The position numbers and the translations under genes were made by a program. From [Phormidium ambiguum] IAM M-71 (GTDB lineage Bacteria > Cyanobacteriota > Cyanobacteriia > Cyanobacteriales > Aerosakkonemataceae): 64,000 nucleotides of DNA. The stretch is from NCBI RefSeq assembly GCF_001904725.1, contig NZ_MRCE01000032.1, forward strand, positions 1-64,000, written 5' to 3'. The notes beneath the pieces were generated by a model. The model was not told the DNA's origin and searched no databases. It was given only the letters and a program-made list of their open reading frames with translations. Numbering within the stretch: position 1 is the stretch's first letter; each line of letters begins with the position of its first letter. Below are positions 7,098 to 57,035 of this stretch, one piece after another.

Positions 7098-8207
7098 CTA
7101 AGCTGTTGTTTCTTCAGAAAATTCAATAGCTGCTTCAGTTTCAACAGTTACGTTGTAGTGGGAAACGTCTGAAACCGAAACATCGATCCAATCTACAATT
7201 GTTGACACGGTATCGTTGCAGGAGTTAGCTGCACTGTGGGGAATAGGAATAGTTTCAGCAGGAGTGGAACTGCTTGTCTTAAGTGCTGCTTCTAAAACTT
7301 TGGCTACCCAGTCCACCAAAATCAATCCTTCTCCTCTAGCAGCATCTTGTATCAGGGATTGCAAGTGTGCGGGAAGCTGTAAAGTTAAGGTGAAAGTTTC
7401 TGTTGATAATGGCGTTCTTTTGGCTTGCTCAGGGCTTGCCTGTCGATTAGTCCAGAATTCGCATTCTGCTCCCCTTTCGTTGCCGTCCTTTTCAATAAAG
7501 TTCAATTTTCCTAACTGGTAGCAGTAAAAACTATGGGGGTCATCTAGGGACTTACGGCTGCAATGGTAGCAGTTCCAACAGCTTCGTGAATCAGTTCCCG
7601 CTTGACTTTGTGGCTTTTTGGAGATGTTCTTGTTCTTAGAGTTAGAACCTGAACCTTTTTGCTGATATTCTTTGGCAATTTGGGCAACATGAGTGGATGT
7701 AACTCTACCTTTAGGAGCAGTAGAGACGGCTTTAGCCCAAGCTTCCTGTTGCTTTTCGGGAGGGAGCGTCACCAAAGGACGAGTTTGACGCTCGTTGGCG
7801 GGAAGAATCTGTGCGCCATGGCGCACATTTTCATAAACTCTGGCTGCCTCAATTAATTGGTAAGCAGAACGACGAGACATTTCCCAATGATTAATACAGT
7901 AATCATCAAAGGTTCCGTACTCTTGTCGATATAAACGCCGCTCTCGAATTTGTCCTAAAGCTTGTCCTATCTCCCAAAATGCTTTCAGACCCTGTTCAAC
8001 TTTAGCTTCCAAGCTACTCAGTTCTATTAACTCAGCTTCTGAAAGTTTGTTTCCTGTAAATGAATTTTTAGCATTAACTTCTTTTAGCTGGGAGTCCTGT
8101 ACTGACCCAACAGGCGTAGTAGAATTAGCTAATGACTGTTTAGACGCATCAAGATGATCAACGGTGTCTGATATTAGCATTGATTCATATATCGAAATAT
8201 CGAACAT
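7098..8207 (-). CDS. Hypothetical protein (369 aa) with a conserved plasmid-associated N-terminal domain, a CCHC cysteine cluster and an acidic C-terminus
   Basis: The block AFWEIGQALGQIRERRLYRQEYGTFDDYCINHWEMSRRSAYQLIEAARV resembles the DUF3102-type domain. A CWNCYHC cluster is present. Confidence 0.4.
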   Translation of the reverse strand: MFDISIYESMLISDTVDHLDASKQSLANSTTPVGSVQDSQLKEVNAKNSFTGNKLSEAELIELSSLEAKVEQGLKAFWEIGQALGQIRERRLYRQEYGTFDDYCINHWEMSRRSAYQLIEAARVYENVRHGAQILPANERQTRPLVTLPPEKQQEAWAKAVSTAPKGRVTSTHVAQIAKEYQQKGSGSNSKNKNISKKPQSQAGTDSRSCWNCYHCSRKSLDDPHSFYCYQLGKLNFIEKDGNERGAECEFWTNRQASPEQAKRTPLSTETFTLTLQLPAHLQSLIQDAARGEGLILVDWVAKVLEAALKTSSSTPAETIPIPHSAANSCNDTVSTIVDWIDVSVSDVSHYNVTVETEAAIEFSEETTA

Positions 8208-10041: not shown

Positions 10042-10431
10042 ATGAGAAACCAAGAAGATTCATTTGTAGAAAATGTTGAAAAAATAGAAAATCAAAACTT
10101 CAGCATTAGCTTTGAAAAAATTGTTCTGATTATAGGAGTACAAATCTTAGCTCAATTAGAAGATGAATTAGAACGGCGTGTTATTTTAAGTTCAGGTATT
10201 AAAGGAGAACCACCTCTTCTATCTAGCTGTACACTAACTGAATTGCTTACTGGTATTCCTATCCAAGAAACTTTGCAGAGGCTAGAACAAAAATTACCGG
10301 AAATCATTGAAACAGCAAGAAATAGGAAAAAAATCAAGCAAGAAGTACAAAGTATTTCAAACCATATCACTACTCCACAATCAATGTCAGAAAATTCGGT
10401 CGAAAGAAGTACTCAAATCAGCTTTTTCTAA
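10042..10431 (+). CDS. Hypothetical protein (129 aa). It is the first gene of the putative E1/E2/JAB operon.
   Basis: The ORF is followed 2 nt later by the next start (taatatg). Confidence 0.4.
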   Translation: MRNQEDSFVENVEKIENQNFSISFEKIVLIIGVQILAQLEDELERRVILSSGIKGEPPLLSSCTLTELLTGIPIQETLQRLEQKLPEIIETARNRKKIKQEVQSISNHITTPQSMSENSVERSTQISFF

Positions 10432-10432
10432 T

Positions 10433-10861
10433 ATGCAATACATACTGAAACTAGAAGGTCAAGAGCTACCATTAACAGCTGAAATAGCAGCAACAGACGA
10501 AACAATCATTGCGGCGCTCGCACCGTTTTTCCCAGAAGCTGCTAGCGCAGAAATCAAACGAGAGCAGAACGGCGAAACCACCATCATTCGTCTAGTCAAA
10601 AAAGCAGGCACTAAAGGGAATTACCTAGAAAACATCATCAATGTTACCAATGAATTGAACCCATCTATTGCACTTTCATGGCAACTAAAACAAATGGAAA
10701 TTCGTGGGGAACTAACCTTAGAGAGATTGCTAAAAATTCAGCCATTACTGGAAAATGCAATAAGCGAAGGTGAAGCCTGGGAAGCTGAGATAAGCCGAGT
10801 AATTTCTCGCTTAAAAACTTGTCAACCAATTGCTTCAAATCAATCCATCAAAGGATATTAA
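10433..10861 (+). CDS. Hypothetical protein (143 aa from MQYILK). The N-terminal ~60 aa could form a beta-grasp.
   Basis: The ATG lies 2 nt after the upstream stop. The sequence MQYILKLEGQELPLT...TIIRLVKKAGTKG is weakly ubiquitin-like. The C-terminus is IKGY. Confidence 0.4.
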   Translation: MQYILKLEGQELPLTAEIAATDETIIAALAPFFPEAASAEIKREQNGETTIIRLVKKAGTKGNYLENIINVTNELNPSIALSWQLKQMEIRGELTLERLLKIQPLLENAISEGEAWEAEISRVISRLKTCQPIASNQSIKGY

Positions 10862-10895
10862 TTGAAAACCAGCGATATGTGGAATTGCTCAATTT

Positions 10896-11627
10896 TTGAA
10901 TCCAATGATGGGGAATCTTAAACGATATCAACTGCCACTAAAAGTAGGAGATTGCCTTGATTATTTACGTTCGCTCCAACTGCAAACAATTCTACTAGAA
11001 CTTTACGGAGAACTTTTTCCCATTCAATGGAGCAATTCTACTATCCCATTGTTCCAACAATCTCATCCCACAGTATACACAGACCGAGAAATCGAATTTT
11101 TGCAGCTGCTTAACACTTGGTTTCCCATTGAATATTACGAAGAATTGGAAACAATTGAGGAAAGATATACAGAAATTTATCTCTATCCGCAAAACATTAG
11201 TTGGTGGAATCAAACATTTGAGGAACTCAGTCAACTAGAACAATTTATCATCAGTTTATTAGATTGGGGATACGAGCGGGAAAAATGGGAATCGGTTTTT
11301 GGTTTTAGCCCTAATTATACTGCTAAACCAGAACAAATTAACTGGGAAAAATTAGAACAATTGTGCCAAACAGAAAAACCGCCATTACAATACTTTAGCA
11401 ATGTAATTAGCATCATCGACCATAGTTCAGACTGCATTTGGCTAGACTTGACTGATGAAAGTTATGAATCGTTGGCTTGGAGTAAAGAGAATATCCTTTA
11501 CCTAAAAAGCCAATGGGAAAAAGCACTTGAATTACAACAGCAAATGGCAGAATTTTCCGTTTGGTTTGAAGCGAAAGTCGAACACAAAAAAGCCGCCTTG
11601 AAACTGTGGAACCAAGCTAAAAAATGA
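10896..11627 (+). CDS. Hypothetical protein (243 aa), translationally coupled to the E2-like gene
   Basis: Its stop overlaps the next start (ATGA). Confidence 0.45.
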   Translation: MNPMMGNLKRYQLPLKVGDCLDYLRSLQLQTILLELYGELFPIQWSNSTIPLFQQSHPTVYTDREIEFLQLLNTWFPIEYYEELETIEERYTEIYLYPQNISWWNQTFEELSQLEQFIISLLDWGYEREKWESVFGFSPNYTAKPEQINWEKLEQLCQTEKPPLQYFSNVISIIDHSSDCIWLDLTDESYESLAWSKENILYLKSQWEKALELQQQMAEFSVWFEAKVEHKKAALKLWNQAKK

Positions 11628-12310
11628 ACGTAGCATTACCACCTCTAGACATTGGAAAACTGGTACAAACGATTGTTCCTCAAACCGAGTTGGGTGAAGT
11701 ACAAGCCCAACTCTTATTTTTGTCGGGACAGTACGTTTTGATTTACAAAGAACAGGAAAAAACCCATTGTAAATTTGTATCGCCAGCCGCCATAGCTCGA
11801 GCTTTCGCCAATACAGTAATTGATTCGGGTTGGCTTGATTGTCATACCGTCCGCTGGGGACATGGTTTATCTGGGGAATGGGTAGTGCAGTACTATCCAC
11901 CACAGCAGTATCAAATTTTTTGTGAAAACAATGAATGGCAAATTCCCCTACCTGCCTTCATATTCGTCGGCTATCGGTCTAGGTACTGGATTTGGGCATC
12001 GAAAACTAAACAGTTTGACCCAAATGCAGCTTTGTACGCCGCCCCCCTGCCTAACGTTTATGGCGATGGTGCCATTTGCTTTGGCGAACTGCATCCACCT
12101 GATTGTTCGCCAAGCCAAATCGGAGTAGCTTGGAAAACATTTTGGCAGAGTAATTTTAGCAACCACCTAATTCAAGGTAAATCAAAGCGCTACCCTCAAA
12201 ACGTGCTTAAGCAACTAATGCAGGTGAGAAACAAACGAATTTATCCCAGCAAAGACTTAGTAATTATGAACAAATCCCTCGACGTTATTTGCCAAGGCAT
12301 TACTAGATGA
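11624..12310 (+). CDS. E2-like (UBC-fold) ubiquitin-conjugating-enzyme homolog
   Basis: PLPNVYGDGAICFGELHPP resembles the E2 active site HPNIyxDGxICLDIL, including the catalytic Cys. The gene has ATGA overlaps with both neighbours. Confidence 0.6.
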   Translation: MNVALPPLDIGKLVQTIVPQTELGEVQAQLLFLSGQYVLIYKEQEKTHCKFVSPAAIARAFANTVIDSGWLDCHTVRWGHGLSGEWVVQYYPPQQYQIFCENNEWQIPLPAFIFVGYRSRYWIWASKTKQFDPNAALYAAPLPNVYGDGAICFGELHPPDCSPSQIGVAWKTFWQSNFSNHLIQGKSKRYPQNVLKQLMQVRNKRIYPSKDLVIMNKSLDVICQGITR

Positions 12311-12912
12311 AAATTCCTCAATTTATAGAGTACAAAACAGCTTTTGATGTAAGTTTACCACCAATAACTGCTAGCGCACTCGAATATTGGTTATCCAGAA
12401 ATGCTGTATTTGTTCGAGCACAGCGACAAGGAATAAAAGCTTGTTTCCCCATCGCCTATTGTCGCATTGCTTCCTTGGCAGTATTAGAACCTTATTTTCA
12501 CATGGAATACCCTCGCGTACCGATGGAAATAACCAAATTGATGTGGTTACTTAGTGAGTCAGCAGGCGAAAATGAAATACTTTTTCACCTATCCTTTAAA
12601 ACCGGAGGTTGGCATTTAGAAGTTCCCGCCCAAATTGCTACACCAACTAGCGTTACACCTTTGATCGGTTCGGTTGATTCATCTTATGAAACAGCATTGA
12701 TTGAAGTGCATTCTCATGCCAACATGAGTAGTGAATTTTCGGAAGCAGATAATCGAGAAGAAACTGGATTTAGAATTTTTGCCATTCTAGGTAAGCTGAG
12801 AAGCCAACCGGAAATTAATACTCGAATTGGCATTTATTCTCACTTTTACTCAATTCCCGCAGGTTGGATATTTGAATTACCAGAGATGTTAGCGGAAAAA
12901 GTACCAACTTAA
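12307..12912 (+). CDS. JAB/JAMM (Mov34/MPN) metallopeptidase, a deubiquitinase-like protein
   Basis: The JAMM motif is E...HSHANMSSEFSEAD, that is HxH-x7-S-x2-D. Confidence 0.7.
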   Translation: MKIPQFIEYKTAFDVSLPPITASALEYWLSRNAVFVRAQRQGIKACFPIAYCRIASLAVLEPYFHMEYPRVPMEITKLMWLLSESAGENEILFHLSFKTGGWHLEVPAQIATPTSVTPLIGSVDSSYETALIEVHSHANMSSEFSEADNREETGFRIFAILGKLRSQPEINTRIGIYSHFYSIPAGWIFELPEMLAEKVPT

Positions 12913-13032
12913 AGCATTAATTGTAGCTGATTTTCTGCGATAATCATTTCTCCTTACCACCACAAGAATCAGTAGGTTTTAGCCATACTGATTCTTTCTG
13001 TCTTTGCAAAATTTAGTTAATCATTAAATACT

Positions 13033-13866
13033 ATGATAGACCTAACTTACAGTAATTCTGTCCCAATTTTAACTCGTCATAGACATCAAATTAATATTTG
13101 GATTGTTGGCACAGGAGGGACAGGAGGATGGCTGGTTCCTAGCCTAGCTCGATTAAGCAAAGTTATGGAAACAAGTAGTAACAAAAAGGTTACTTGTACT
13201 TTGGTAGACCCGGATATTATTGAAGCGAAGAACATTTCCAGACAGAACTTTATTGAGAGTGAAATTGGCAGTAATAAAGCCTTAGTTCTAGCCACTAGAT
13301 ACAACCTAGCATTAGGCGGCAATTTAACTGCTATTCCGAAACCTTTTCATCAAGATTTAATAGATAATTGGTGGACGGGTTTAACGATAATTATTGGTTG
13401 TGTGGATAATGCAGCAGCCCGTTACCAAATCAGTCAATGTCTGGACTTGAATCAAAATAAAGAACCGGACATTTGGTATTTGGATTGTGGGAATCATGCC
13501 AATTCAAATTCGGGACAAGTGTTACTTGGTTCTGCCAATCAATTCCAACTAAAAAATGCTTTCGACAACCCAGAAAAGCCCAGTTTTTGTATTAACTTAC
13601 CTTCGCCTACTTTGCAGCATCCTGAATTACTAGAACCGCTACCTGAAGAACTGAGTAATACCTCGCTTTCTTGTGCAGAAATCGCATTGCGTAACCAACA
13701 AGCATTATTTGTAAATCAACAAGTAGCTGCCATAGCGACAGAGTATGTAAAATCTCTTCTATTAACAGCAGGATTGAGACGGTTTGCTACTTACTTTAAT
13801 AGTGATATTGGTTCAATGCGATCGCGCTACATTTGTTCCCAAAATATAACACAATATACAACCTAA
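13033..13866 (+). CDS. E1-like ThiF/MoeB-family adenylyltransferase
   Basis: The Rossmann motif is IWIVGTGGTGGW. The motifs VDPDIIEAKNISRQNF and GCVDNAAAR are typical of E1/ThiF. Confidence 0.75.
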   Translation: MIDLTYSNSVPILTRHRHQINIWIVGTGGTGGWLVPSLARLSKVMETSSNKKVTCTLVDPDIIEAKNISRQNFIESEIGSNKALVLATRYNLALGGNLTAIPKPFHQDLIDNWWTGLTIIIGCVDNAAARYQISQCLDLNQNKEPDIWYLDCGNHANSNSGQVLLGSANQFQLKNAFDNPEKPSFCINLPSPTLQHPELLEPLPEELSNTSLSCAEIALRNQQALFVNQQVAAIATEYVKSLLLTAGLRRFATYFNSDIGSMRSRYICSQNITQYTT

Positions 13867-13872
13867 CACAAC

Positions 13873-15123
13873 ATGAGCCAACTTTTCCACCTCGACACTG
13901 CTATGGGTAATTCAAATCAGTTACTCAAACTTATAGAGTCAAAAAATTTAGCTTTAGAACCAAAAGATATAATAGCAGTTTTTGGAGCATCTCTTACCCA
14001 ACCAAAATTACCTAAATTGCATCAGTTTCAATTAGGAGATATTGTAACCCAAGGACAATGTTATGGGGTAGTAACTGTACTAAATGAAACAGACCGACCC
14101 ATAACAATTACTTGGGATGGAAATAGTGATTCTGAACCTGATGTATTTGCTTACACGCTGGACGAAATTCGGTTTTTGGGAATTGCAATTATTCCTCAAT
14201 TAATCCCACGGAAAACAATTGTAGAACTACCAGCAAACATAACTATTCAACTAGGGAATGCTAAATTCGTCAAGTTCAATCAAGCGAATACTTTCTTAGT
14301 TGAAGAAGTTAGCGAACATCATTTGATTATCCGCTCTCTTGAAGAGCGATATCGCTTGACTAAAGAACTGTTTCCGGGAAAGTTATTTGCTTGTATTGTA
14401 GATATTCCCATCTCGGCTCAAGTACCTAGTAATTTATCTTTAATAGCCTTAAAAAATAAAGTTAAATTACATTTAAAAATGGCTAAGGCTGTTAACGATA
14501 ATTTGTCATGCTTAACGGCAATGAAGAAACAACAATTATTTGAAGAATTGGTTTTGGAATTAGCAGGCGAAAACTATGATACTGAGGAACTAAACGAAGT
14601 TTGGTCAGCAGTATGGGCAGAACAAATAGCCAGTTTAGCTAAGGAACAAGGTTTGTACAACTTTAAACTAAGTGAGCGTGTTTTCAGACAACGAGAAGGG
14701 TTAGAAATCTGGGGAACTATTGTGGAGTTAAACGTTGAACTAACACGACCCTTTTTAATTGAATGGGAGCAGGGAGAAGTGCAGGATTATAGCTTAATTG
14801 AATTAAAATGTTTAGGGATTACTCCCCTCAAACCTGTCATCAAATTATCGCCTAATGTTGCTTATCAAATTAGCGAAGACGGTCGTTACTTTAAAGCTTG
14901 GATTGGCTTTCGTACCAAAGGGTTAGCGAAAGCTTGGTGGCGGATAATTAAAAAGCAAGTGGGATACCTCAGTCATTGGCGAGAATGTTTTAGTGCTGAA
15001 TTGAAACATACAGATAAGCGTTATGAATGCGTTGTAGAAAAGTTTTGTCAAAAAACTGTAGCTAAACGATTATCAGTTTTGCAAAGATTAGCAGAAACAA
15101 ACTTGGAAGAAATGCCACGATGA
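13873..15123 (+). CDS. Hypothetical protein (416 aa) immediately downstream of the E1-like gene
   Basis: It starts 7 nt after the E1 stop. No motif was recognised. Confidence 0.45.
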   Translation: MSQLFHLDTAMGNSNQLLKLIESKNLALEPKDIIAVFGASLTQPKLPKLHQFQLGDIVTQGQCYGVVTVLNETDRPITITWDGNSDSEPDVFAYTLDEIRFLGIAIIPQLIPRKTIVELPANITIQLGNAKFVKFNQANTFLVEEVSEHHLIIRSLEERYRLTKELFPGKLFACIVDIPISAQVPSNLSLIALKNKVKLHLKMAKAVNDNLSCLTAMKKQQLFEELVLELAGENYDTEELNEVWSAVWAEQIASLAKEQGLYNFKLSERVFRQREGLEIWGTIVELNVELTRPFLIEWEQGEVQDYSLIELKCLGITPLKPVIKLSPNVAYQISEDGRYFKAWIGFRTKGLAKAWWRIIKKQVGYLSHWRECFSAELKHTDKRYECVVEKFCQKTVAKRLSVLQRLAETNLEEMPR

Positions 15124-15198: not shown

Positions 15199-16251
15199 TT
15201 GAATGAGTTCATGAGTACATATAACATAATGAATAGAAAACGGGGACTAATTTTAGGGAAATTTGCACCTTTCCATCAAGGGCATCAACTGTTAATGGAA
15301 ACAGCATTATCAGAAATGGATGAAGTAATTACAGTTATTTACAATTGCCCAGAAATAACTAATGTTCCTCTAAATATACGTGCTGGCTGGATCGAGAAAA
15401 CATACCCTAACGTCCAAGTAATAAAAGCATGGGATGGCCCTACGGAAGTAGGAGATACAGCAGAAATTAAGCAAAAGCACGAAGATTACATTATTAATTA
15501 TCTAAAAATACAAGGAATCACACACTTTTATTCGAGTGAATTTTATGGAGAACACATGAGTTTAGCTCTAGGAGCAGTTAATCGTCTGGTAGATTATCAT
15601 CGCAGTAGAGTTCCCATTTCAGGTACACAAATCAGGAACAATCTGTTTAAATTTCGTCAATATTTACATCCCTGGGTATATCGTGACTTGATTACCAATA
15701 TAGTTTTTCTCGGAGCACCTTCTACAGGGAAAACTACAATTACTGCACAATTAGCAGAAGAATATAACACAGTTTGGATGCCCGAATATGGAAGAGAGTA
15801 TTGGGAAAAGCATCAAATCAATCGGCGATTATCTTTAGTACAATTAGAGGAAATTGCTGAAGGACATCTAGAGCGGGAAGAAGCATTACTAGAGAAAGCT
15901 AATCAATACTTATTTACAGATACTAATGCTATTACTACTTATCTATTTTCTTTATCTTATCACAATCAAGCTGCACCAAGATTAGTTGAGTTAGCCCAAC
16001 AAGCAGCATCTCGCTATGATTTAGTATTTGTTTGTGACTCGGATATTCCTTATGATGATACTTGGGATCGTTCGGGAGAAGAAAATAGAAAAATATTTCA
16101 AAAACAAATTATTAATGAACTCATTATTCGTAAAATTCCTTTTTTTTTACTGCAAGGGGAACTGGAAACCAGAATAAACTATGTAAAAAGTATTTTAGCT
16201 AAATATTGTAAGTATGAAAATTTACTACAGTTGTTTGCTATGAATAAGTAA
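15199..16251 (+). CDS. nadR: Bifunctional NMN adenylyltransferase / ribosylnicotinamide kinase (NadR-like, without HTH)
   Basis: The nucleotidyltransferase motif is GKFAPFHQGH (HxGH). The kinase P-loop is GAPSTGKTT. Confidence 0.7.
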   Translation: MNEFMSTYNIMNRKRGLILGKFAPFHQGHQLLMETALSEMDEVITVIYNCPEITNVPLNIRAGWIEKTYPNVQVIKAWDGPTEVGDTAEIKQKHEDYIINYLKIQGITHFYSSEFYGEHMSLALGAVNRLVDYHRSRVPISGTQIRNNLFKFRQYLHPWVYRDLITNIVFLGAPSTGKTTITAQLAEEYNTVWMPEYGREYWEKHQINRRLSLVQLEEIAEGHLEREEALLEKANQYLFTDTNAITTYLFSLSYHNQAAPRLVELAQQAASRYDLVFVCDSDIPYDDTWDRSGEENRKIFQKQIINELIIRKIPFFLLQGELETRINYVKSILAKYCKYENLLQLFAMNK

Positions 16252-16271
16252 GTAAAAATATCTCTGAAAAA

Positions 16272-16937
16272 ATGTGGAAATTCTTTAGCGTAAATAATAT
16301 TGCCTTTACGCTCATGGGATATCCCATGAGCTATGTAGAATTTATAGGTACTATCCTTTATTTATGGTCGGCATGGTTAGTAGCACGGAGGAGGATATTA
16401 ACATGGCCAGTTGGGATTGTGAGCGTGTTATTGTACATGGCATTGTTCTACCAAATTCGATTATATTCAGATATGTTGGAGCAGGTCTATTATTTAATAA
16501 CCAGTATTTATGGTTGGTGGCAGTGGAGTAAATCTAGTCGCACTCCAGTTAATTCAACTTCTTTCCGTTACAGTTCTCAACGTTATATAATTCGATTTTT
16601 GGCGCTGACATTAGTAATTTCATTTGTTACTGGAACTTTAATGAGTCGTATAGATATAATATTGCCAACTTTTTTTCCAGAAAAGGCATCTTTTCCTTAT
16701 TTAGATGCGTTGACAACTATAATGAGTTTTACCGCTAACTGGTTAATGATTGAAAAGCGGGTAGAAAGTTGGTATTACTGGATTGTTGTCGATTTGCTTG
16801 GAATTGGGTTGTATTACGTTAAAGAGGTAAGATTTATTGCTTTGCTTTATGTTATTTTGTTAGGGATTGCTATTAATGGCTTAGTATCTTGGCATCAAAT
16901 TACTAAAAAATCAGCAATTGCTCAAAAGATTAAGTAG
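16272..16937 (+). CDS. pnuC: Nicotinamide riboside transporter PnuC
   Basis: This is a multi-pass membrane protein with the PnuC-typical GWWQW motif. It directly follows the nadR-like gene. Confidence 0.65.
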   Translation: MWKFFSVNNIAFTLMGYPMSYVEFIGTILYLWSAWLVARRRILTWPVGIVSVLLYMALFYQIRLYSDMLEQVYYLITSIYGWWQWSKSSRTPVNSTSFRYSSQRYIIRFLALTLVISFVTGTLMSRIDIILPTFFPEKASFPYLDALTTIMSFTANWLMIEKRVESWYYWIVVDLLGIGLYYVKEVRFIALLYVILLGIAINGLVSWHQITKKSAIAQKIK

Positions 16938-17074: not shown

Positions 17075-18505
17075 GTGAAATCAATGAGCCAAAATTTACT
17101 CAACCTAACCCAAACCAGCGAATCACACCAGTTTACTTTTACCCCACAACAATCAAAAGCTATCCAACAACTAAAAGAATTTTTGATTAGCCCAAACACT
17201 TTCTTTCTCTTATGTGGATATGCCGGAACCGGAAAATCGACAATCATCATTCAATTCATCAAAGAACTGCTACAACAAGGCAAAAGAATTGCTTTAAGTG
17301 CGCCCACCAACAAAGCAGTTAATATCCTCAAAAAGTTAGCAGCACAGCACCAAATTATCGAAGTAGACTTTTTGACAATCCACCAACTTTTAGGATTAGG
17401 AATGGTCAGAAAAGAACAAGATAAAGTGCTAGAGCAAACCAACTCCAGTACCCTATACTTATACGACATTATCATTCTTGATGAATGTTCGATGGTAGGA
17501 AGAGAACTGTGGAAATGGATAGAAAAAGGATTCAAGCAAACACTGTTCAATCGAAAAAAACTAATTTTGATGGGAGATTCAGCCCAATTAAATCCCATTG
17601 GAGAAAAGCGCAGTCCTAGTTTTAATGTAATCGAGCGAGCTATCCTGACAGAAGTAGTTAGACAACCAGGAGAAAGTCCAATACTGGACTTTATTACTAA
17701 CTGTCGCTCCTTCGTAAAAAATCAAGCTAAGACTTCAATTTTCCTACCTCATTCCCAATACAAAAAAGGAGACAAATCGAATGGTGCTTTCAAAGTAACC
17801 AGCGAAACAATGTTAGACTATGCCATCAAAACAATCAAGCGAAAATTTGCTCTTCATCCCGATTGTTTTAGAATCCTCTGCTGGACAAACAAACGAGTAG
17901 ATTACTACAATCAGATAATTCGAGAACAAGTCTACGGTTCGACTGCACCACGATTCGTTCCCGACGAACGACTAATTACTAAAAAACCAGTAATAGCACC
18001 AGATGGCAAGACAGTAATTTTGCCAACTTCGACTGAATTTACTGTAAAAGAAGTAGAAATCAGTCAACATTATGGCTATCGAGTATGGCTGCTAAAAATT
18101 GTTACCGATGAGGGAATAATGCGGCAGATTTTTGTGCAGCATGAATCCGAATCCAACCGCTACGAAGCAGAACTAGAACAGAAGCTAAAAAGCGCCAAAC
18201 GAAATGGTTTTTTGTGGCGCAAATATTATTGGTTCAAAGATGATTTGTTTGCCGAAGTCGATAATTGTTTTTCTTTAACGGTACATAATTCGCAAGGAAG
18301 TACTTTTGATGAAGTAGGAATAGATGGGGATGACCTTTTCACGCGCTTATTGGTAGGAAATGATGAGAGCAGAAAACAGAAATTAAAGGAGTATCATCGT
18401 TTATGGTATGTATCAGGTTCCAGATGTAAAAAAAGACTATTATTTGTCGCTCCTCAACTTCAAAAAGTTGAGAGATTATTCCCCCGACAAATCACGCTTT
18501 TTTAA
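17075..18505 (+). CDS. SF1B helicase of the RecD/Dda-like family
   Basis: Walker A is GYAGTGKST, Walker B is IIILDECSM, and VHNSQGSTFD (motif V) is present. Confidence 0.7.
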   Translation: MKSMSQNLLNLTQTSESHQFTFTPQQSKAIQQLKEFLISPNTFFLLCGYAGTGKSTIIIQFIKELLQQGKRIALSAPTNKAVNILKKLAAQHQIIEVDFLTIHQLLGLGMVRKEQDKVLEQTNSSTLYLYDIIILDECSMVGRELWKWIEKGFKQTLFNRKKLILMGDSAQLNPIGEKRSPSFNVIERAILTEVVRQPGESPILDFITNCRSFVKNQAKTSIFLPHSQYKKGDKSNGAFKVTSETMLDYAIKTIKRKFALHPDCFRILCWTNKRVDYYNQIIREQVYGSTAPRFVPDERLITKKPVIAPDGKTVILPTSTEFTVKEVEISQHYGYRVWLLKIVTDEGIMRQIFVQHESESNRYEAELEQKLKSAKRNGFLWRKYYWFKDDLFAEVDNCFSLTVHNSQGSTFDEVGIDGDDLFTRLLVGNDESRKQKLKEYHRLWYVSGSRCKKRLLFVAPQLQKVERLFPRQITLF

Positions 18506-18608: not shown

Positions 18609-20048
18609 ATGACAAGAATTGGACTGAAAAAATCAGTTAGAGCTAAAACAGTTAACTCTACTGTAACGCCCCCAGAAAAATCAAATGCAGATAGTGCTAA
18701 AAAACGACAAAAAAGTTCAAAGACTACCTCCACTAACCAACCAAAACCAACTGAACCGTCAGAAACTATTTCATCCCAAACCGAACAAACCTCTGAAATA
18801 TCGGCTTTACCAATACCAACACCAGTAGAAGCGATTTGTAATTCTAGGGAATTCAACGATTACGTGCAGGTACTTAAAGCGATAGTTCCTAACAATAATA
18901 ACCATCCGATATTGTGCAACATTCTGATTGAAGCAGAGCCGAATTCCCAACAATTACAATTGACTGCATACAACCTAGAATTTGGAATGCAAGTTAGCTT
19001 TGATGCCACAATTAATCAATCAGGTTCTCTGACATTACCTGTTACCATACTAGCTGATATATTAGGGAAATTTCCTCAAGGTCGGCTGACAATAAATAGT
19101 GAAGTTACTATACCCAAAGGTAACAAAGCTGCAAACACACCACCATCCATAACTGCCACCTTATCAATGCCAAGAAGTCAGCACGTTATTCGAGGATTAA
19201 TTGCCAGCGAATTTCCTACAATTCCTCCAGTAAACCACAAATTGTTTTCTCTCCCAGCTAGCACGCTAATAGGGGTACTTAAAGGTAGCTTGTTTGCTGT
19301 CAGTTTGAATGAAGCGAAACGAATTATAACAGGTGTTAACTTTAAACTTAGTTATGATGCAGAACGTGGGATTAATCACCTGAGAATTTGGACAACAGAC
19401 GGACATCGAATTGCCATGATTTTGGGATTAAGTGAGAGCAACAATGAGGCTAATCATTGGCTCGAAGAAGCAGTAGAATTTACTGTACCTGCTAAAGTGT
19501 TGAAGCTACTAGAACGCAATTTAAACCCGACAGAGCGCGTTTCTATTTACTACGATGGTTCGGCAGAGCAGGTAGCAAAGTATGTAGCTTTTCGTTGTCA
19601 AAATTGGCAAATGACAACCCAGTTGTTAGAAGGAAATTACCCACCATGTAACCAAATTGTTGACCCTTACAGAAGTGAGTTGAAGTATCAAATAATAGTG
19701 GAGCGATTAGCTTTAGTTAGGGCATTGGAAAGATTAGCAACTCACAGCGATAAATCCCACGTTACGGTAGGGTTAGAATTTGATTCCGAACAACAACAAA
19801 TTCGAGCTTCAATTACTAATGCAGTTAGTTCTGGTCAGGAAATAATTGCTGCTAAGATTGATGGTGATAAGTTGCGAGTAAAGTTAGATATTCGCTATTT
19901 AATCGATACGGTGAAAGCAGTTACAACGTCAGATTTGCGAATGCTGTTAGCTTCACCCCTGGCACCAGTATTGATTGTGCCTTTTGGTACGCCAGTTTCG
20001 GGAGAAGCGGCTATCGAATCAGAATATGCAATAGCACCCCAAGAGTAA
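18609..20048 (+). CDS. dnaN: DNA polymerase III beta sliding clamp (DnaN-like) with a Lys/Ser/Thr-rich N-terminal extension of about 95 aa
   Basis: PILCNILIEA, LQLTAYNLEFG, and TTDGHRIAM (compare E. coli ATDGHRLAV) are present. Confidence 0.75.
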   Translation: MTRIGLKKSVRAKTVNSTVTPPEKSNADSAKKRQKSSKTTSTNQPKPTEPSETISSQTEQTSEISALPIPTPVEAICNSREFNDYVQVLKAIVPNNNNHPILCNILIEAEPNSQQLQLTAYNLEFGMQVSFDATINQSGSLTLPVTILADILGKFPQGRLTINSEVTIPKGNKAANTPPSITATLSMPRSQHVIRGLIASEFPTIPPVNHKLFSLPASTLIGVLKGSLFAVSLNEAKRIITGVNFKLSYDAERGINHLRIWTTDGHRIAMILGLSESNNEANHWLEEAVEFTVPAKVLKLLERNLNPTERVSIYYDGSAEQVAKYVAFRCQNWQMTTQLLEGNYPPCNQIVDPYRSELKYQIIVERLALVRALERLATHSDKSHVTVGLEFDSEQQQIRASITNAVSSGQEIIAAKIDGDKLRVKLDIRYLIDTVKAVTTSDLRMLLASPLAPVLIVPFGTPVSGEAAIESEYAIAPQE

Positions 20049-20049
20049 G

Positions 20050-20095
20050 TGAAAAAGGGAGAAGGATTCTTGACTTTTCCTACTCCCTTTTTCCT
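20050..20095. terminator. Bidirectional hairpin terminator between convergent genes
   Basis: The stem is gggagaagga...tcctactccc and is flanked by T/A runs. Confidence 0.5.
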
Positions 20096-20101
20096 CTTAA
20101 A

Positions 20102-21040
20102 TCAATCATTATTCTCTTCTGATTGAGACTGAGATATAAGTTGCTGAAAATCAGACAAAGATTCAATAGTAACAGCTTGCCTATGCAACATCCTGAGTAA
20201 CTCAGAATCTTGTACCAGATTAATAGCTTTTACCAACTCACTTGGCAGTTCTGTGAACCGGATTTCTAAAATTTCGATAATATCCTCTCGACGAGCTAAA
20301 CGTTCAAAAGTAGTATCGTAACGCATTTGATTTTCCTCCTCAAAACGTTTGATTTCTTGACTAAACCCACTTTCCAAATCTCCTGGCAATGTCATCATCC
20401 AGTCAATTAATCGAAATAATTCACGGATTTCAGACCGATTATAACCCCGTTCAAACAGACTCTTGACAATGCTTAATTTCCACTCTAACCGCTCTTGAGG
20501 TTTTCCACCTGTCGCCTGTGTTTTTAGATACGCCATAACAATAGGAGCGAAAGGGTTGATACTTGCTTCTAAAGTTTGCCAATCCTCTTGATAGTCTAGC
20601 AACTTGACCATCGAAAACCTTAACAAAACCCTAGTTCCCCAAATGTCATAACTGTATTCTTGGGGTCGCCAAGATTTTTCTGAGTCGGATAAAATTGCTA
20701 AACTCGCCACTTTTTTCCGGTAAATACCGAAAATGCGACTGTTGTAAACATACATTCTTTCCGCAAAAGTTGATTGGTATTGACTTTGCACTTCTAAATG
20801 AATCAACACCCAAGTTTCCTGACCGTTAGTTAACCAAACTTTAACTAATTTATCAGCTTCTCTTTGTCCTAATTCGTCATCCCGCATCACTTGTCTGAGT
20901 TCATTATCCAGAAATTCGTATGGGATTTTCCAGTCTATTTGTTCGTAGATATCTGGGAAAAAGAAAGCAATAAAAGATTTAAAGTAAACAGCGATAGCTT
21001 CTTTCCAAGGATTATCATAATCATCCCGTTGTTTAGACAT
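20102..21040 (-). CDS. Rpn-family (YhgA-like) recombination-promoting nuclease/putative transposase with a DUF4351-type C-terminus
   Basis: The likely start MSKQRDDYDNPWKEAIAVYFKSF matches typical Rpn N-termini. PD-(D/E)XK-like residues are present. The table ORF begins 26 aa earlier. Confidence 0.6.
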   Translation of the reverse strand: MSKQRDDYDNPWKEAIAVYFKSFIAFFFPDIYEQIDWKIPYEFLDNELRQVMRDDELGQREADKLVKVWLTNGQETWVLIHLEVQSQYQSTFAERMYVYNSRIFGIYRKKVASLAILSDSEKSWRPQEYSYDIWGTRVLLRFSMVKLLDYQEDWQTLEASINPFAPIVMAYLKTQATGGKPQERLEWKLSIVKSLFERGYNRSEIRELFRLIDWMMTLPGDLESGFSQEIKRFEEENQMRYDTTFERLARREDIIEILEIRFTELPSELVKAINLVQDSELLRMLHRQAVTIESLSDFQQLISQSQSEENND

Positions 21041-21095
21041 ATTTCTCCTTCCCCTAGCGGGGATTCTCTGGGAACTTTTGTGAAAAACTGAAATA

Positions 21096-22472
21096 ATGCA
21101 CCAACCATTATCACTCAAATATCGACCAAAAAATCTGGCAAGTTTAGTAGGTCAAGAACCAATCAAAATCGCCCTAACAAATGCAGTAACTTCGGCTAAA
21201 ATTGCCCCAGCTTATTTGTTTACTGGGCCAAGAGGAACAGGTAAAACTTCTACAGCACGCATTCTAGCCAAATCGTTAAATTGTCTTAATTCGTCAGTGA
21301 CGACAGCAAATCCTTGCCAAAAATGTGCATCATGTAAAGCAATTGATGCAGGCAATAGTTTAGATGTAAGTGAAATTGATGCAGCTAGTCATAATGGGGT
21401 AGAAGATGCTAGAGAATTAATCGAACGCAGCAATTTTGCACCAGCAATGAGTCGGTATCGAATATTCGTTTTAGATGAATGTCATCAACTTAGTAGTAGT
21501 GCTCAAAATGCACTGCTCAAATGTATCGAAGAACCACCATCTCATGTGGTATTTATTCTCTGTACAACTGAAGCGCACAAGGTATTACCAACTATTAGTT
21601 CGCGCTGTCAAACGTTTAACTTTAAAGCACTGTCTATGGAGGCAATTGTCGAACAATTGTCACGAGTAGCTGTTCAAGAATCGATCGCCATTACAGAGGA
21701 AGCAAATAAGCTAATTGCAAAACATTCAGAGGGTGGATTAAGAGATGCTTTGCAATTGCTTTCTCAATTATCGTTGATGGGAGAAGAAATTACACTAGAG
21801 CGTGTAGTGGAAGTGTCTGGTGGGATTCGTTCTCATGATTTAGCTACGCTTGTCAAAGCTATCTGTGCGGGTGATGTACTGACAGTATTACAATCAGCAA
21901 GGACTCTAATTGATAGCGGTAAAACACCAAAATTGATTCTGAGTAGTCTGTTGGCAGTTTACCGCGATTTACTGATTGTTAAAAGCGTACCCAAAAGTGA
22001 GAATATACTCGCCGGAACTCTATCGTATTCGCAATTGCGACAAGTTGCTAACACGCTAGATTTTCCTAGCATAGATGCAGCTTTAATGCAATTACAAAAA
22101 TCAGAAAGTCAGTTGAGAGTAACGACTAATGGTGCTACTTGGTTAGAAGTATGCTTGCTCAATTTGATTCACAATAATCAACGCCAACTACTAGGGAATC
22201 AAGAGCAGCATAACCGAAACGGGAATGGCAAAGTTGAGGAATTGAGTTCAGTTTGGATGAAGGTTGTTGAAGCAACAAAACCAGCTAATCGCAGCTTACT
22301 TTCTCGCGCAAAATTAATCAGTTTAAATGAAAGTAATTGTGTACTAGTAGTCCCCACATCTGATGTGAAAAAGTTTCAAAGCAATGTGGCATTAGTAGAA
22401 CGAATTGTCAGCCGAGTATTGGGTTATTCAGTTACGATTGCGATTGAAGAAAGGAAGGAACTGTCAGTATGA
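21096..22472 (+). CDS. dnaX: DNA polymerase III gamma/tau-like clamp-loader ATPase (short DnaX)
   Basis: YRPKNLASLVGQE, GPRGTGKTS, the zinc module CLNSSVTTANPCQKCASC, DECHQLS, and SRCQ (the SRC motif) are present. Confidence 0.8.
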   Translation: MHQPLSLKYRPKNLASLVGQEPIKIALTNAVTSAKIAPAYLFTGPRGTGKTSTARILAKSLNCLNSSVTTANPCQKCASCKAIDAGNSLDVSEIDAASHNGVEDARELIERSNFAPAMSRYRIFVLDECHQLSSSAQNALLKCIEEPPSHVVFILCTTEAHKVLPTISSRCQTFNFKALSMEAIVEQLSRVAVQESIAITEEANKLIAKHSEGGLRDALQLLSQLSLMGEEITLERVVEVSGGIRSHDLATLVKAICAGDVLTVLQSARTLIDSGKTPKLILSSLLAVYRDLLIVKSVPKSENILAGTLSYSQLRQVANTLDFPSIDAALMQLQKSESQLRVTTNGATWLEVCLLNLIHNNQRQLLGNQEQHNRNGNGKVEELSSVWMKVVEATKPANRSLLSRAKLISLNESNCVLVVPTSDVKKFQSNVALVERIVSRVLGYSVTIAIEERKELSV

Positions 22473-23458
22473 TAACGCTATTAGTTGGCAACGATACTGA
22501 AGCGATTAAGCAAGAATTGGCAACATTTAAAGCACACACGCATCCCCGGTGGCGAGACTTTAACGTGCATCAATTTAGTGCTGAACAATTAAGTGCTGCC
22601 ATGATGAGTGCTTTTTCAGTTCCTTTTGGTGAAGGTGGCAAACTAATTATCGTAGAAAATTGTGATTTCAAACAGTTTGGTGAAACTGGATTAGAGATGT
22701 TGCAACCTTTATCCCTGTTACCCAAAACTACCCATTTGGTATTTACGGCTAATTCTATTGATAAGCGGCTGAAGGTAACTAAACATTTGTTATCGTTAGG
22801 TAAGCTGAAAGAGTTGGCTTTGATTCCGCCTTGGCGTAGTGACTTAATCGAACAAGCGATCGGCAATACTGCTAAACAAATGCAGTTAACTATTGCTCGT
22901 GATGCTGTGAACTATTTAGCCCAAGCCATTGGTAATGATACTACTAGAATGGTGAAAGAATTGGAAAAGCTAGCTGTTTATGCCGCAGGTGCAAAAATTA
23001 CCAAAGAGCAGGCTATTGCGTTAATTCCCATCACCACAAGCAACAGTTTACAATTAGCTCAAGCATTACTGAAACGTGAAACTGTCCCAATTGTTCAGAT
23101 AGTACGCGAATTACTATCTCGTGCTGAATTTCCTTTAGTAATTGTTGCTACTCTCATTACTCAGTTTAAGACTTGGTTGTGGGTGAAAGCAGCATTAGTA
23201 GCTAAACGTTCTGACTCAGAAATTGCTACTTTGTGCGGTTTAGGTAATCCCAAACGAATGTATTTCTTACGACAAGAAGTAAATGATGTTTCGACAAATT
23301 ACTTGTCAAAAGTACTTTCGATGCTATTTGAGTTGGAAGTTGAATTAAAAAGTGGAGAAAAAGCTGATTCCATACTGCCAGCATTGTTGAGAATTGTACA
23401 GGTACCCTCTCATACTACATCGGTATGTTACAATAATGGGGCAAGTAGTAATACATGA
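22469..23458 (+). CDS. holA: DNA polymerase III delta subunit (HolA-like)
   Basis: The start MITLLVGND is holA-like. The gene is coupled to dnaX (ATGA overlap). It is paralogous to 50954..51907. Confidence 0.65.
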   Translation: MITLLVGNDTEAIKQELATFKAHTHPRWRDFNVHQFSAEQLSAAMMSAFSVPFGEGGKLIIVENCDFKQFGETGLEMLQPLSLLPKTTHLVFTANSIDKRLKVTKHLLSLGKLKELALIPPWRSDLIEQAIGNTAKQMQLTIARDAVNYLAQAIGNDTTRMVKELEKLAVYAAGAKITKEQAIALIPITTSNSLQLAQALLKRETVPIVQIVRELLSRAEFPLVIVATLITQFKTWLWVKAALVAKRSDSEIATLCGLGNPKRMYFLRQEVNDVSTNYLSKVLSMLFELEVELKSGEKADSILPALLRIVQVPSHTTSVCYNNGASSNT

Positions 23459-43584: not shown

Positions 43585-45498
43585 ATGAAACTTATTGCCA
43601 AATCAATTATTCGACGTTACTCCTGTACCCGTAGCAGAAAAGATAGTCCAGGTTCTTTTTATTCCTGGGCCGAAACCCAAGTAATGATGCAATATAATCA
43701 GTTAGCTCGGTTTGTCAAAATAAACAACACTAGCTTTTTGAATTATCCCTATCAATTAATCGATAATGCTGCCGATTTAGAAACAGCACTTGAACCATTT
43801 ATGGCAGCAAAAATTATTGGCGTTGACTGTGAAACATCAGGAGGAATTGATCCATATCGAGCCAAAATTCGCTTGGTGCAACTAGCGATTCCCCAACATC
43901 CAGCTATCATTATTGATTTAGCTGCTATTGATAGTGCAGATTTGTCACCATTACGCCAACTTCTCAGGGGAAATGCACTCAAAGTAGGACACAATCTTAA
44001 ATTTGAATGGATGATGTTAGCACAAGCTGGATTAAAACCAAGCCGCCCTTTTTTTGATACCTACCTTGCTTATCGCGTGCTAACTGCCGGACTTAAATGT
44101 AGTTTATCTCTAGAAGCAGCAGCAGCACAATTACTAAATGTCAAATTAGACAAAAGGTTACAAACAAGTGATTGGTCGGGCGAACTAACAGCTGCTCAAT
44201 TACAATATGCAGCTATAGATGCAGCAATTGTATTGCCTTTACGAACTAACTTGAAACGTCAACTAAAAAAAGCTTTGTTGTGGTCAACTGCTTTACTGGA
44301 ATTTGCTTGTTTACCAGCAGTTGCTCAAATGGAACTCAATGGAATGTGGTTAGATAAACAACAATGGCAGTTATTGAAAGCACAGCTAGAAGCACAACAG
44401 AAAGCACTTGCTATAGAGCTTTCTTCATTGCAAATTCCATCCCCGAATAAACAAATTTGTTTACTTCCAGAATTCGCTAATTCTATCAATCTGCGCTCTC
44501 CCAAACAAGTTTTAGCTGCTTTGCAAGCCCAAGGAATTCCGGTTTCTTCTACTAACACTCAAGCTTTAATTCCTTTAGTTAACGAATACCCCATAATACA
44601 AGCATTGCTGGATTATCGTAGTTTATCAACTAGAATTAGCACCTTTGCAGAAGGATTAGTACAGCACGTTCATCCCGTTACTGGACGCATTCATCCCAAT
44701 TGGTTTCAAATAGGAGCTAAATCGGGTAGATTTAGTTGTCGAGAACCGAATTTACAAAATGTTCCCAGAAATCCAGCTACTCGACAATGTTTTAAACCTG
44801 CATTGGGCCATGTTTTACTGAAGGCAGATTACAGTCAAATTGAACTACGAATCATGGCTAAAGTGACTGGCGATATGCGAATGATTGCTGCTTATTCAAA
44901 GGGTGAAGATTTGCACAAATTAACTGCTTCTTTAGTATTGGGTAAGTCGCTATCTGAGATTAATTCAGAGGAACGACAGCTTGGTAAAATCATCAACTTT
45001 GGCTTAATTTATGGTATGGGAGCCAAGAAATTTAAAAATATGGCACAAGCCGAACATGGTAGAGTTTTGAGTTTAGAAGAAGCTTCACAGTTTCGGAAAC
45101 GCTTTTTTGAAAGCTACGCTGGCATTGCAGAATTTCACAAGCATATTCGCAGAAACTGGCTTCAAGGAATTAGAGAAAGTCGTACTTTAGGAGGTAGGCG
45201 AAGACTTTGGTCTAAAGATTCTAAGCCATTGCTTAACGAGATGTTGAATAATCCAATTCAAGGACTGAGTGCTGATATCACAAAACTGGCACTAGCCAAA
45301 CTATTTGCACCACTGAATCGCACAGAAGCCAGGTTGATTTGCGTAATTCACGATGAGATTTTACTAGAGTGTCCGATTGCAGAAGTAGAACCAGTTAAAG
45401 CTTTACTAAAACGCTCTATGGTAGAGGCTGGAGACAAGTTTTTAACACCAATTTCCTGTGAAGTTGAAATTCAAATGGTTGAGAGTTGGGGAGGTTAA
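43585..45498 (+). CDS. Family A DNA polymerase (PolA-like, with a 3'-5' exonuclease domain and no 5' nuclease domain)
   Basis: Exo I is IGVDCETSG. Motif A is DYSQIELRI, which is identical to E. coli Pol I. Motif B is RQLGKIINFGLIYGMG. Motif C is VIHDEILLE. Confidence 0.85.
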   Translation: MKLIAKSIIRRYSCTRSRKDSPGSFYSWAETQVMMQYNQLARFVKINNTSFLNYPYQLIDNAADLETALEPFMAAKIIGVDCETSGGIDPYRAKIRLVQLAIPQHPAIIIDLAAIDSADLSPLRQLLRGNALKVGHNLKFEWMMLAQAGLKPSRPFFDTYLAYRVLTAGLKCSLSLEAAAAQLLNVKLDKRLQTSDWSGELTAAQLQYAAIDAAIVLPLRTNLKRQLKKALLWSTALLEFACLPAVAQMELNGMWLDKQQWQLLKAQLEAQQKALAIELSSLQIPSPNKQICLLPEFANSINLRSPKQVLAALQAQGIPVSSTNTQALIPLVNEYPIIQALLDYRSLSTRISTFAEGLVQHVHPVTGRIHPNWFQIGAKSGRFSCREPNLQNVPRNPATRQCFKPALGHVLLKADYSQIELRIMAKVTGDMRMIAAYSKGEDLHKLTASLVLGKSLSEINSEERQLGKIINFGLIYGMGAKKFKNMAQAEHGRVLSLEEASQFRKRFFESYAGIAEFHKHIRRNWLQGIRESRTLGGRRRLWSKDSKPLLNEMLNNPIQGLSADITKLALAKLFAPLNRTEARLICVIHDEILLECPIAEVEPVKALLKRSMVEAGDKFLTPISCEVEIQMVESWGG

Positions 45499-49588: not shown

Positions 49589-49607
49589 TGAGGGGAGAAA
49601 ATAAATC

Positions 49608-56978: not shown

Positions 56979-57035
56979 TATTTAGTAAAATAATTGATTC
57001 CATATAGATTAGTAAGGCTAGATAAGGGGAGCAAG

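Follow-up and report, generated by a model that had tools for sequence, protein, structure and literature searches.

A cyanobacterial PRTRC/type 6d ubiquitin-like conjugation cassette with a predicted fusion precursor and a putative clamp-binding partner protein

The window analysed here, a stretch of 64,000 nucleotides from [Phormidium ambiguum] IAM M-71 (contig NZ_MRCE01000032.1, positions 1 to 64,000 of the forward strand), carries at 10042-13866 six co-oriented genes on the forward strand in the order g129, g142, g243, E2, JAB and E1 (Table 1). These genes form a ubiquitin-like (Ubl) conjugation cassette that is not a new kind of system; it is a cyanobacterial branch of the PRTRC systems, also described as type 6d, which have been known computationally since 2006. 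A sequence-only reading of the same DNA had listed seven open reading frames (ORFs) between 10042 and 15123 and had named a PRTRC-type cassette with E2, JAB and E1 genes; all seven ORFs are present in the translations, the E2, JAMM and E1 motifs that it quoted can be read there directly, and hidden Markov model matches and gene order agree with the naming, while the product of 10433..10861, given as 143 aa, has 142. That reading had joined the genes up to JAB by 2-nt gaps or ATGA overlaps. The ATGA overlaps are there at g243/E2 and E2/JAB, but g129 and g142 are separated by a 1-nt gap and g142 and g243 by about 43 nt (43 nt with the ATG start of g243, which we use because homologue N-termini suggest it). 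Between E1 and the following gene, g416, the gap is 6 nt.

Table 1. Features of the Ubl conjugation cassette and of the genes beside it, in window positions
Feature	Position	Strand	Description
g129, PRTRC-E position	10042..10431	+	129 aa; small N-terminal domain, low-complexity linker, C-terminal QISFF-COOH (codons 10414-10428)
g142, Ubl precursor (predicted)	10433..10861	+	residues 1-62 (10433-10618) Prok_Ub/PRTRC-C beta-grasp; 63-75 linker; 76-142 helical
g243, PRTRC-F position	10905..11627	+	ATG 10905 (240 aa) or TTG 10896 (243 aa)
E2-like conjugating enzyme (Prok-E2_D)	11624..12310	+	228 aa; Cys152 codon 12077-12079; P141-x-x-N144
JAB-N + JAMM metallopeptidase, PRTRC protein A-like	12307..12912	+	201 aa; predicted Ubl-processing protease and deconjugase
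Hairpin, JAB-E1 spacer	12964..12995	+	11-bp perfect stem AAGAATCAGTA/TACTGATTCTT; downstream of conserved ATTTTCTGCGATAAT box
E1-like adenylating enzyme, PRTRC-type ThiF	13033..13866	+	277 aa; GxGGxG, N67/R70/Q71, D125, Cys214
g416	13873..15123	+	416 aa; neighbour outside the conserved cassette, travels with the helicase-dnaN module
RecD/PIF1-like helicase	17075..18505	+	ends ..RQITLF-COOH, second clamp-binding-type C-terminus
Plasmid-borne DnaN (beta clamp)	18609..20048	+	~75-aa N-terminal extension rich in Lys, Ser and Thr

Three of the six products are recognisable from family profiles. The E2 translation contains ...AAPLPNVYGDGAICFGEL... in its catalytic region and matches Pfam Prok-E2_D (PF14460) at 4.7e-36, and its score against TIGR03737 (PRTRC_B) is 64.5 bits, under the cutoff of 131.45; since residues C152, P141, N144 and G154 are invariant in 11/11 sequences from four phyla, we assign it as a putative E2 on the Pfam match together with the invariant Cys and PxxN. 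The JAB motif HSH-x7-S-x2-D is present in its translation (EVHSHANMSSEFSEADN), and the protein scores against Pfam Prok-JAB (5.9e-5, 23.4 bits, cutoff 25) and TIGR03735 (PRTRC_A; 2.7e-6, 27.1 bits, under the cutoff of 101.8), with E90, H135, H137, S145 and D148, as well as R40 of the JAB-N domain, invariant in 9/9 sequences. The E1 translation contains GTGGTGG, NISRQNF and VDNAAAR and matches Pfam ThiF at 1.8e-15; by profile score PRTRC_ThiF (TIGR03736) is clearly its closest family, the match of 139.5 bits (E 1.1e-40, model positions 9-238 of 245) falling just under the trusted cutoff of 144.75. Judged in the same way, the homology of E2 and JAB to PRTRC proteins B and A is clear, at less than equivalog level. 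Invariant E1 residues are G26, G28, G29, G31, D59, D61, N67, R70, Q71, K82, D125, R130 and C214, the last being a candidate thioester site. Because catalytic residues are invariant across the cyanobacterial, proteobacterial, Bacteroidota and Bacillus versions that were compared, E1, JAB and E2 look catalytically competent. A search by sequence for relatives in the PDB returned none for E2, JAB or the 243-aa family.

The cassette is conserved as a unit. A scan with three cyanobacterial E2 sequences as query, with one genome per species, gave 50 loci, all cyanobacterial, of which the nearest are those of Floridaenema aerugineum (96%), F. evergladense (93%) and [Phormidium] sp. LEGE 05292 (92%). 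By tblastn mapping, g142, g243, E2, JAB and E1 stand in the same order in 45 of the 50; two of the other five (L048 and L051) are cut at a contig end and a third (L032) at the end of a 10-kb record, and F. aerugineum (L005) has a deletion and F. evergladense (L006) an insertion. Co-occurrence of the cassette genes is far beyond chance, so that the proposal stands at the point where the sequence-only reading had thought it vulnerable, namely that homologues might never co-occur in other genomes. An ORF at the g129 position is always present in related loci, weakly conserved, and the arrangement recurs in two metagenomic loci that hold distant 142-aa family members, with a Toprim primase following in one of them. 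Cassette proteins share 30-60% identity across genera. A homologous cassette lies on pCC7120beta of Nostoc/Anabaena PCC 7120, which makes that strain a tractable model host. The E1 search of PLSDB found 252 plasmids, and PRTRC/6d operons are widespread on plasmids and integrative and conjugative elements (ICEs) of many phyla; DNA nearly identical to the window was looked for in PLSDB and none was found.

Compared with the canonical PRTRC operon (NCBIfam TIGR03734-TIGR03742; Cupriavidus taiwanensis plasmid), which runs ParB-E-C-F-B-A-ThiF, the window has the same order on one strand once ParB is left out. E2, JAB and E1 are homologous between the two, as by profile alignment is the Ubl with its ...G-x-K-G end, and both are carried on plasmids or ICEs. 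They differ in that the window Ubl is fused to a helical domain of ~80 aa, its Gly being internal, whereas the tail of canonical PRTRC C past the same Gly is 0-13 aa long (3 aa in 77/120); the window proteins at the E and F positions have no detectable similarity to PRTRC E and F; the window protein at the E position ends in a clamp motif, unlike the sampled canonical E proteins; and the flanks of window-type loci are primase-polymerase and dnaN/dnaX genes, the primase-polymerase lying upstream in place of ParB.

Iyer, Burroughs & Aravind (2006; PMC1779556) define type 6d as a Ubl, a rapidly diverging alpha-helical protein with conserved charged residues, an E2-like protein, a JAB-N/JAB protein and an E1-like protein, and give Anabaena PCC 7120 and A. 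variabilis as two of the hosts. The window shares these components, and the plasmid cassettes of both strains are homologues of that in the window, which has a Prok-E2_D E2 with its Cys, the arginine (R40) of the Arg/Trp conserved in JAB-N beside an intact JAMM, and a beta-grasp Ubl with a conserved Gly. The paper describes a small, standalone Ubl with a C-terminal Gly, whereas the Gly in the window is internal, and an 'absolutely conserved' His past the E2 Cys, which is not kept in Nostocales homologues (alignment A2); the portion consulted mentions neither a clamp-binding motif nor a replication-module context. The position of g243 and its invariant Asp, Glu and aromatic (Trp) residues (alignment A5) would fit the component called there an "alpha-helical protein, possibly an enzyme". 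As to its role, the g243 product may act as specificity factor or E3-like component, or may itself be a target; a word-index search with it matched two proteins.

The Ubl is provided by residues 1-62 of g142, which make up a beta-grasp domain related by profile alignment to PRTRC protein C. The window has no small gene with a terminal Gly, as the sequence-only reading had said; the N-terminus of the 142-aa product, which it had called weakly ubiquitin-like, is the Ubl itself by profile comparison and AlphaFold2 model, and the ...IKGY terminus that it had noted does not correspond to the end of the Ubl, the equivalent Gly being internal (G62, codon 10616-10618). The beta-grasp part ends K56-x-A-G-T-K-G62. 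Canonical PRTRC C proteins end ...RAAGAKG-ADA (Cupriavidus) or ...TTIGTKG (Parabacteroides), which is the same motif, and hhalign aligned g142 residues 1-62 with 122 canonical PRTRC C sequences over 55 columns (93.4% probability, P = 2.4e-7), superposing AGTKG of g142 and AGAKG of PRTRC C. Among 146 members of the g142 family scanned singly, 19 matched TIGR03738 (PRTRC_C) and 29 matched Prok_Ub (PF14454), all below cutoff, and the next family was matched by 5 members at most. The AlphaFold2 model of g142, built on the 146-sequence alignment, has a predicted local distance difference test score (pLDDT) of 88.3 and a predicted template modelling score (pTM) of 0.47. It shows the beta-grasp expected of 10433..10861, beta-beta-alpha-alpha-beta-beta over residues 2-55, then a stretch of lower confidence at ~55-75 and a very confident helical part at 77-129; the low pTM argues for two independent domains.

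Homologues of g142 numbered 10 in a word-index search and 414 cluster representatives in an exhaustive profile search, in which nearly all of the matches listed are two-domain proteins of ~140 aa. The two-domain Ubl is encoded by 22 PLSDB plasmids, which are without exception cyanobacterial and of which 16 are typed as conjugative; its annotation is always "hypothetical protein". Across 128 aligned members G62 is conserved in 127, G59 in 124 and K61 in 123, and K56 is nearly invariant. The stretch after G62 is the sole hypervariable part of the family, ranging from ~10 to ~130 low-complexity residues. Because KxAGTKG is followed by a variable linker and then by a conserved helical domain, g142 looks like a ubiquitin-fusion precursor. 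We tried and rejected the helical domain as the N-terminus of the longer canonical PRTRC F: hhalign gave P = 0.72 against F and 0.041 against E, and the domain has no match to g243 or g129.

A comparison of Ubl tails with the presence of JAB, made on a small sample of loci, bears on how such a precursor would be processed. Every extended Ubl in the sample is accompanied by a JAMM gene, be it the 3-aa tail of C. taiwanensis (L003), the 37-aa tail of Ca. Manganitrophus (L063), the poly-Ubl of Bacillus thuringiensis (L059) or the fusions of Anabaena cylindrica pANACY.02 (L001), L002 and L056, and in all four sampled loci that have no JAMM gene (Parabacteroides, Vibrio, Marinobacter and P. putida) the Ubl stops exactly at the Gly. 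Together with the motif, these patterns suggest that JAB may cleave g142 after Gly62. Two of the extended proteins have features of their own. The 249-aa ORF of B. thuringiensis HD-789 pBTHD789-2 (L059, 882-1631), which bears the label hypothetical protein, is built of four PRTRC-C-type Ubl repeats in tandem, each ending FTAKAGTKG and followed by a short spacer, with a 17-aa tail after the last; it is a putative polyubiquitin-like precursor in a 6d-type locus. On the Ca. Manganitrophus plasmid (L063, 2261-2578), the ...AVGRKG of a canonical PRTRC C is extended by a basic tail of 37 aa whose end, ...HSGF, resembles the ..GF-COOH found in the cyanobacterial two-domain family.

Eukaryotic ubiquitin, too, is made from precursors, namely the ubiquitin-ribosomal protein fusions UBA52/RPS27A and the polyubiquitins UBB/UBC. 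In both settings the modifier is an N-terminal fusion (as in g142) or a set of head-to-tail repeats (as in B. thuringiensis), and a dedicated peptidase must expose the C-terminal Gly. The likeness is an analogy of gene architecture only, since the partner in the window is a helical domain and the predicted processor is a JAMM metalloprotease of the same operon. What we add to the known system at this point is the Ubl as a fusion precursor and the comparative case for JAB processing after Gly62, and a Ubl precursor with a predicted JAB site, mirroring eukaryotic ubiquitin-fusion genes as its Bacillus relative mirrors polyubiquitin, lends itself to a simple biochemical assay.

An alternative interpretation is that the Ubl is never cleaved, so that the product of g142 is either a stable Ubl-domain protein or a modifier in its entirety, activated at Gly141 after removal of its last residue. 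The near-invariant penultimate G141 (116/128) could be such an activation site, which counts against cleavage at Gly62; a terminal F or other aromatic residue is kept in 101/128 members (the window protein ends ..KGY, the family consensus being ..PxGF-COOH), and the C-terminal domain is kept by all family members and modelled at pLDDT 93-98. We consider this alternative quite improbable, however, because conservation of the internal KxAGTKG is higher still and this motif aligns with the genuine C-terminus of canonical PRTRC C, because linker length past G62 is hypervariable, and because the B. thuringiensis poly-Ubl and the correlation of JAB with tails point to a cut at GTKG.

The second feature that sets the cyanobacterial cassettes apart is the C-terminus of the protein at the g129 position. 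The consensus for the beta-clamp binding motif is QL[SD]LF. Outside the nearest clade, proteins at this position share only ~17-30% identity overall while their extreme C-terminus is conserved: the last six residues are NQLSLF, NQLTLF or KQLSLF across the 45 loci that were compared, TQISFF in the window and its nearest relatives, and EQLSFF in a distant metagenomic locus, and no such protein of a cyanobacterial-type locus lacks the terminal clamp-type pentapeptide (QL[ST][LF]F-like). QLSLF is established as a beta-clamp binding motif (PMC5397184). By motif and genomic context, QISFF of g129 would likewise be a beta-sliding-clamp binding motif. Positive controls come from a C-terminal motif scan of 1338 ORFs of related loci: an annotated DNA polymerase (A. 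cylindrica, ..VGKQLSLF) has the same C-terminus, RecD-like helicases have it as QITLF/QMTLF, and it recurs in a small number of further large ORFs. Among ORFs of at least 60 aa in the 64-kb window, only g129 and the RecD/PIF1-like helicase end in the motif, and both lie just upstream of dnaN, whose product is the presumed docking partner of the QxxxF C-termini. Homologues of this helicase in L005-L007 end QMTLF or QITLF. Since a partner protein ends in a clamp binding motif, a role at the plasmid replication machinery is suggested, and genomic context is in keeping with this: most loci have dnaN and dnaX downstream of the cassette, all three complete plasmids with annotation examined have a primase-polymerase gene upstream of it, and in one canonical PRTRC, that of a P. 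putida megaplasmid, dnaN follows 4 kb downstream.

What the comparisons establish is homology, gene order, the conservation of catalytic residues and motifs, and the genomic setting; from these we infer cleavage, conjugation, clamp binding and the likely targets as follows. The 142-aa protein would be made as a Ubl-X fusion precursor, and the JAMM peptidase would cut past Gly62 of KxAGTKG to leave a 62-aa beta-grasp Ubl with a C-terminal Gly and a separate helical domain. The ThiF-type E1 would adenylate Gly62, with a thioester probably forming on the invariant Cys214, and the Ubl would pass to Cys152 of E2 and thence to lysines of target proteins, a modification that JAB may reverse. Through its C-terminal QISFF, g129 would tether the system to the plasmid beta sliding clamp; the proteins modified would then be those of the replisome or of plasmid maintenance, with the 243-aa protein as specificity factor or substrate.

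We think it probable, with reservations, that 10042-13866 is a six-gene plasmid-borne Ubl conjugation operon, a cyanobacterial variant of PRTRC/type 6d that works by this processing and clamp mechanism. Only tentatively do we go further and suggest that the Ubl system may be recruited to the beta clamp by a QLSLF-type adaptor, so that Ubl released from the precursor would modify clamp-associated plasmid proteins in a prokaryotic counterpart of PCNA ubiquitylation/SUMOylation. If true, this would be the first function for the PRTRC/6d family, an orphan since 2006, and should the connection to the replisome be borne out, eukaryotes and archaea would not be alone in tagging sliding-clamp machinery with a Ubl. 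The clamp motif gives the orphan system a testable site of action, and since it points to the plasmid DnaN, encoded within a few kb, as candidate docking partner, it hints at where substrates may lie.

Several observations weigh against this interpretation. A literature search found no experimental work on any PRTRC/6d system. The PRTRC models that match E2, JAB and E1 do so with scores that are all under the NCBIfam trusted cutoffs, and the window has no ParB gene (TIGR03734 member). Window g142 itself, at full length or as residues 1-62, matches neither Prok_Ub nor TIGR03738 directly, its link to them being transitive through the family profile. No match at E <= 1, family members included, was found between g129 and PRTRC E (TIGR03741; hhalign P = 0.46) or between g243 and PRTRC_F (TIGR03742; hhalign P = 0.079), and by alignment only position and rough architecture appear to correspond. 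Canonical PRTRC E has the same layout as g129 (small N-terminal domain, low-complexity linker, short hydrophobic end), but none of its C-termini (DLASLL, PASLW, DSGAL, EFGL and ASQF) is a canonical clamp motif, so that the link to the clamp may be confined to cyanobacteria. At locus L060 JAB is present and the Ubl carries no tail, which is compatible with JAB acting also as a deconjugase. Finally, lesions in relatives argue that the cassette is dispensable.

The absence of ParB had been noted in the sequence-only reading and is confirmed by tblastn of three PRTRC ParB proteins against the window (best E 0.11) and by the lack of a Pfam ParB match among 30 window ORFs. We considered p369 (7098-8207, minus strand, 369 aa) as a hidden ParB and rejected it, as it shows no similarity to the three PRTRC ParB proteins and no Pfam or NCBIfam match; Pfam and NCBIfam scans (E <= 10) of g129, g142 (full length and 1-62), g243, g416 and p369 gave nothing meaningful.

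The lesions are found in four relatives. F. aerugineum, the closest, has lost g129, g142 and the 5' third of g243 (L005, 5901-7004); F. evergladense carries a 1.3-kb insertion between JAB and E1 (L006, 8220-9620) that encodes a 429-aa ORF ending DGVQLSLF; Trichormus NMC-1 has a JAB-E1 deletion fusion (L015, 7675-8667); and the cassette of Chroococcidiopsis pCHRO.01 (L066) is interrupted near an IS200/IS605-TnpB. Read on their own, they would allow the view that the window cassette, too, is a decaying, non-functional remnant of a mobile-element operon. We regard this as very improbable, because the six ORFs of the window are intact and translationally coupled with every catalytic residue kept, and because the cassette is conserved across genera at the protein identities given above.

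Bil, CBASS-Cap2 and Bub systems have by now been characterised, unlike PRTRC/6d, and they raise the possibility that the cassette serves anti-phage defence, conjugating its Ubl to phage or host proteins on infection, the plasmid location being that of defence genes on mobile elements. The sequence-only reading had seen such a likeness to Bil and Bub. Bil (type 6e) and CBASS Cap2/Cap3 do share with the window the logic of E1, E2, JAB and Ubl, the enzyme classes being the same, and carriage on mobile elements. E1 matches the PADLOC 'E1-E2' (Cap2) models weakly (best 1.2e-7), and the g142 family is listed in PADLOC-DB as PDLC01077, C3a152, 'Type III-C specific' (3e-26). On A. cylindrica pANACY.02 a type III CRISPR-Cas locus (L001, 1-4693) lies directly beside the cassette, and Iyer et al. 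(PMC1779556) speculate on an addiction or defence role. We nevertheless consider defence unlikely, and found nothing that directly backs the antiviral likeness: the Cap2 matches are limited to the shared adenylation domain, cassette proteins have no match among the PADLOC Bil profiles, no CD-NTase or effector gene was found in the cassette neighbourhood by Pfam, NCBIfam and PADLOC scans, and E2 copies were absent from 50,697 phage records. The window also has neither a JAB-E1 nor an E1-E2 fusion, its E2 is Prok-E2_D and not the Bil-type Prok-E2_A, and its context is one of replication rather than defence, the conserved neighbours being primase-polymerase, helicase, dnaN and dnaX. A defence conjugation system would not be expected to bear a clamp-binding motif on one of its core proteins, and the C3a152 label probably stems from adjacency to type III CRISPR loci on plasmids, seen in one locus only, and not from a functional link.

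That plasmid context also allows a different function, in which the cassette would be a plasmid establishment or anti-defence module with a leading-region role, expressed early after conjugative entry to modify or protect, in the recipient, proteins of the incoming plasmid or the host, much like the ParB/DUF932/antirestriction surroundings of canonical PRTRC. The window looks like a conjugative plasmid or ICE: it carries a type IV secretion system coupling protein, two dnaN/dnaX sets, holA, a family-A polymerase, DUF3854 and a group II intron reverse transcriptase. Canonical PRTRC adjoins ParB and DUF932 genes on conjugative plasmids and ICEs, and the preponderance of conjugative types among plasmids with the two-domain Ubl points the same way. 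Family scans found no known anti-restriction domains in the cassette, and we hold an establishment role to be improbable, while cautioning that it and tethering to the replisome are not mutually exclusive.

Of the four partner genes that the sequence-only reading had left uncharacterised, the 142-aa gene supplies the Ubl and the 243-aa gene is kept with the cassette in synteny, but the 416-aa gene is present in only 4/50 loci, the window's four closest, and travels without it. We therefore drop g416 from the cassette. Its plasmid homologues occur without a Ubl cassette, as on pOSC7112.04 of Oscillatoria (O. nigro-viridis), where the order is dnaX-holA-hyp-g416-helicase-dnaN, and g416 thus belongs to the replication module.

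The hairpin that had been described between JAB and E1 is real, with a perfect stem one base pair longer than the 10 bp given. The JAB-E1 spacer folds better than shuffled sequences (z = -3.16), and the stems are conserved in L005, L007 and L012 (alignment A7). Because the 11-nt loop of the window, GGTTTTAGCCA, is the exact reverse complement of the L005/L007 (Floridaenema, Phormidium) loop, TGGCTAAAACC, the loop has been flipped between its inverted repeats. Nostocales loci have no JAB-E1 spacer at all. The hairpin could be a 5' untranslated region or attenuator element for the E1 gene.

Elsewhere in the window, the dnaN-dnaX sets lie at 18609-23458 (with holA) and 48158-50957, and 43585-45498 codes for the family-A DNA polymerase. 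The stretch 15199-16937, which separates g416 from the helicase, holds one gene for a NadR-like protein (NMN adenylyltransferase/ribosylnicotinamide kinase; AAA_28 + CTP_transf_like) and one for a PnuC transporter; as tblastn finds NadR-like/PnuC in no related locus, recent insertion of this NAD-salvage pair into the replication module is suggested. A defence-like cluster at 52372-63720 encodes a 1241-aa NACHT + HEAT-repeat protein, a PLD-like nuclease (57036-57836), an MZB-domain protein (57836-59722) and a 1315-aa helicase-C protein, and a second DEAD/MZB (MrfA-like) helicase lies at 27217-29874. The group II intron reverse transcriptase/maturase, with an HNH domain, is encoded at 333-2033 on the minus strand.

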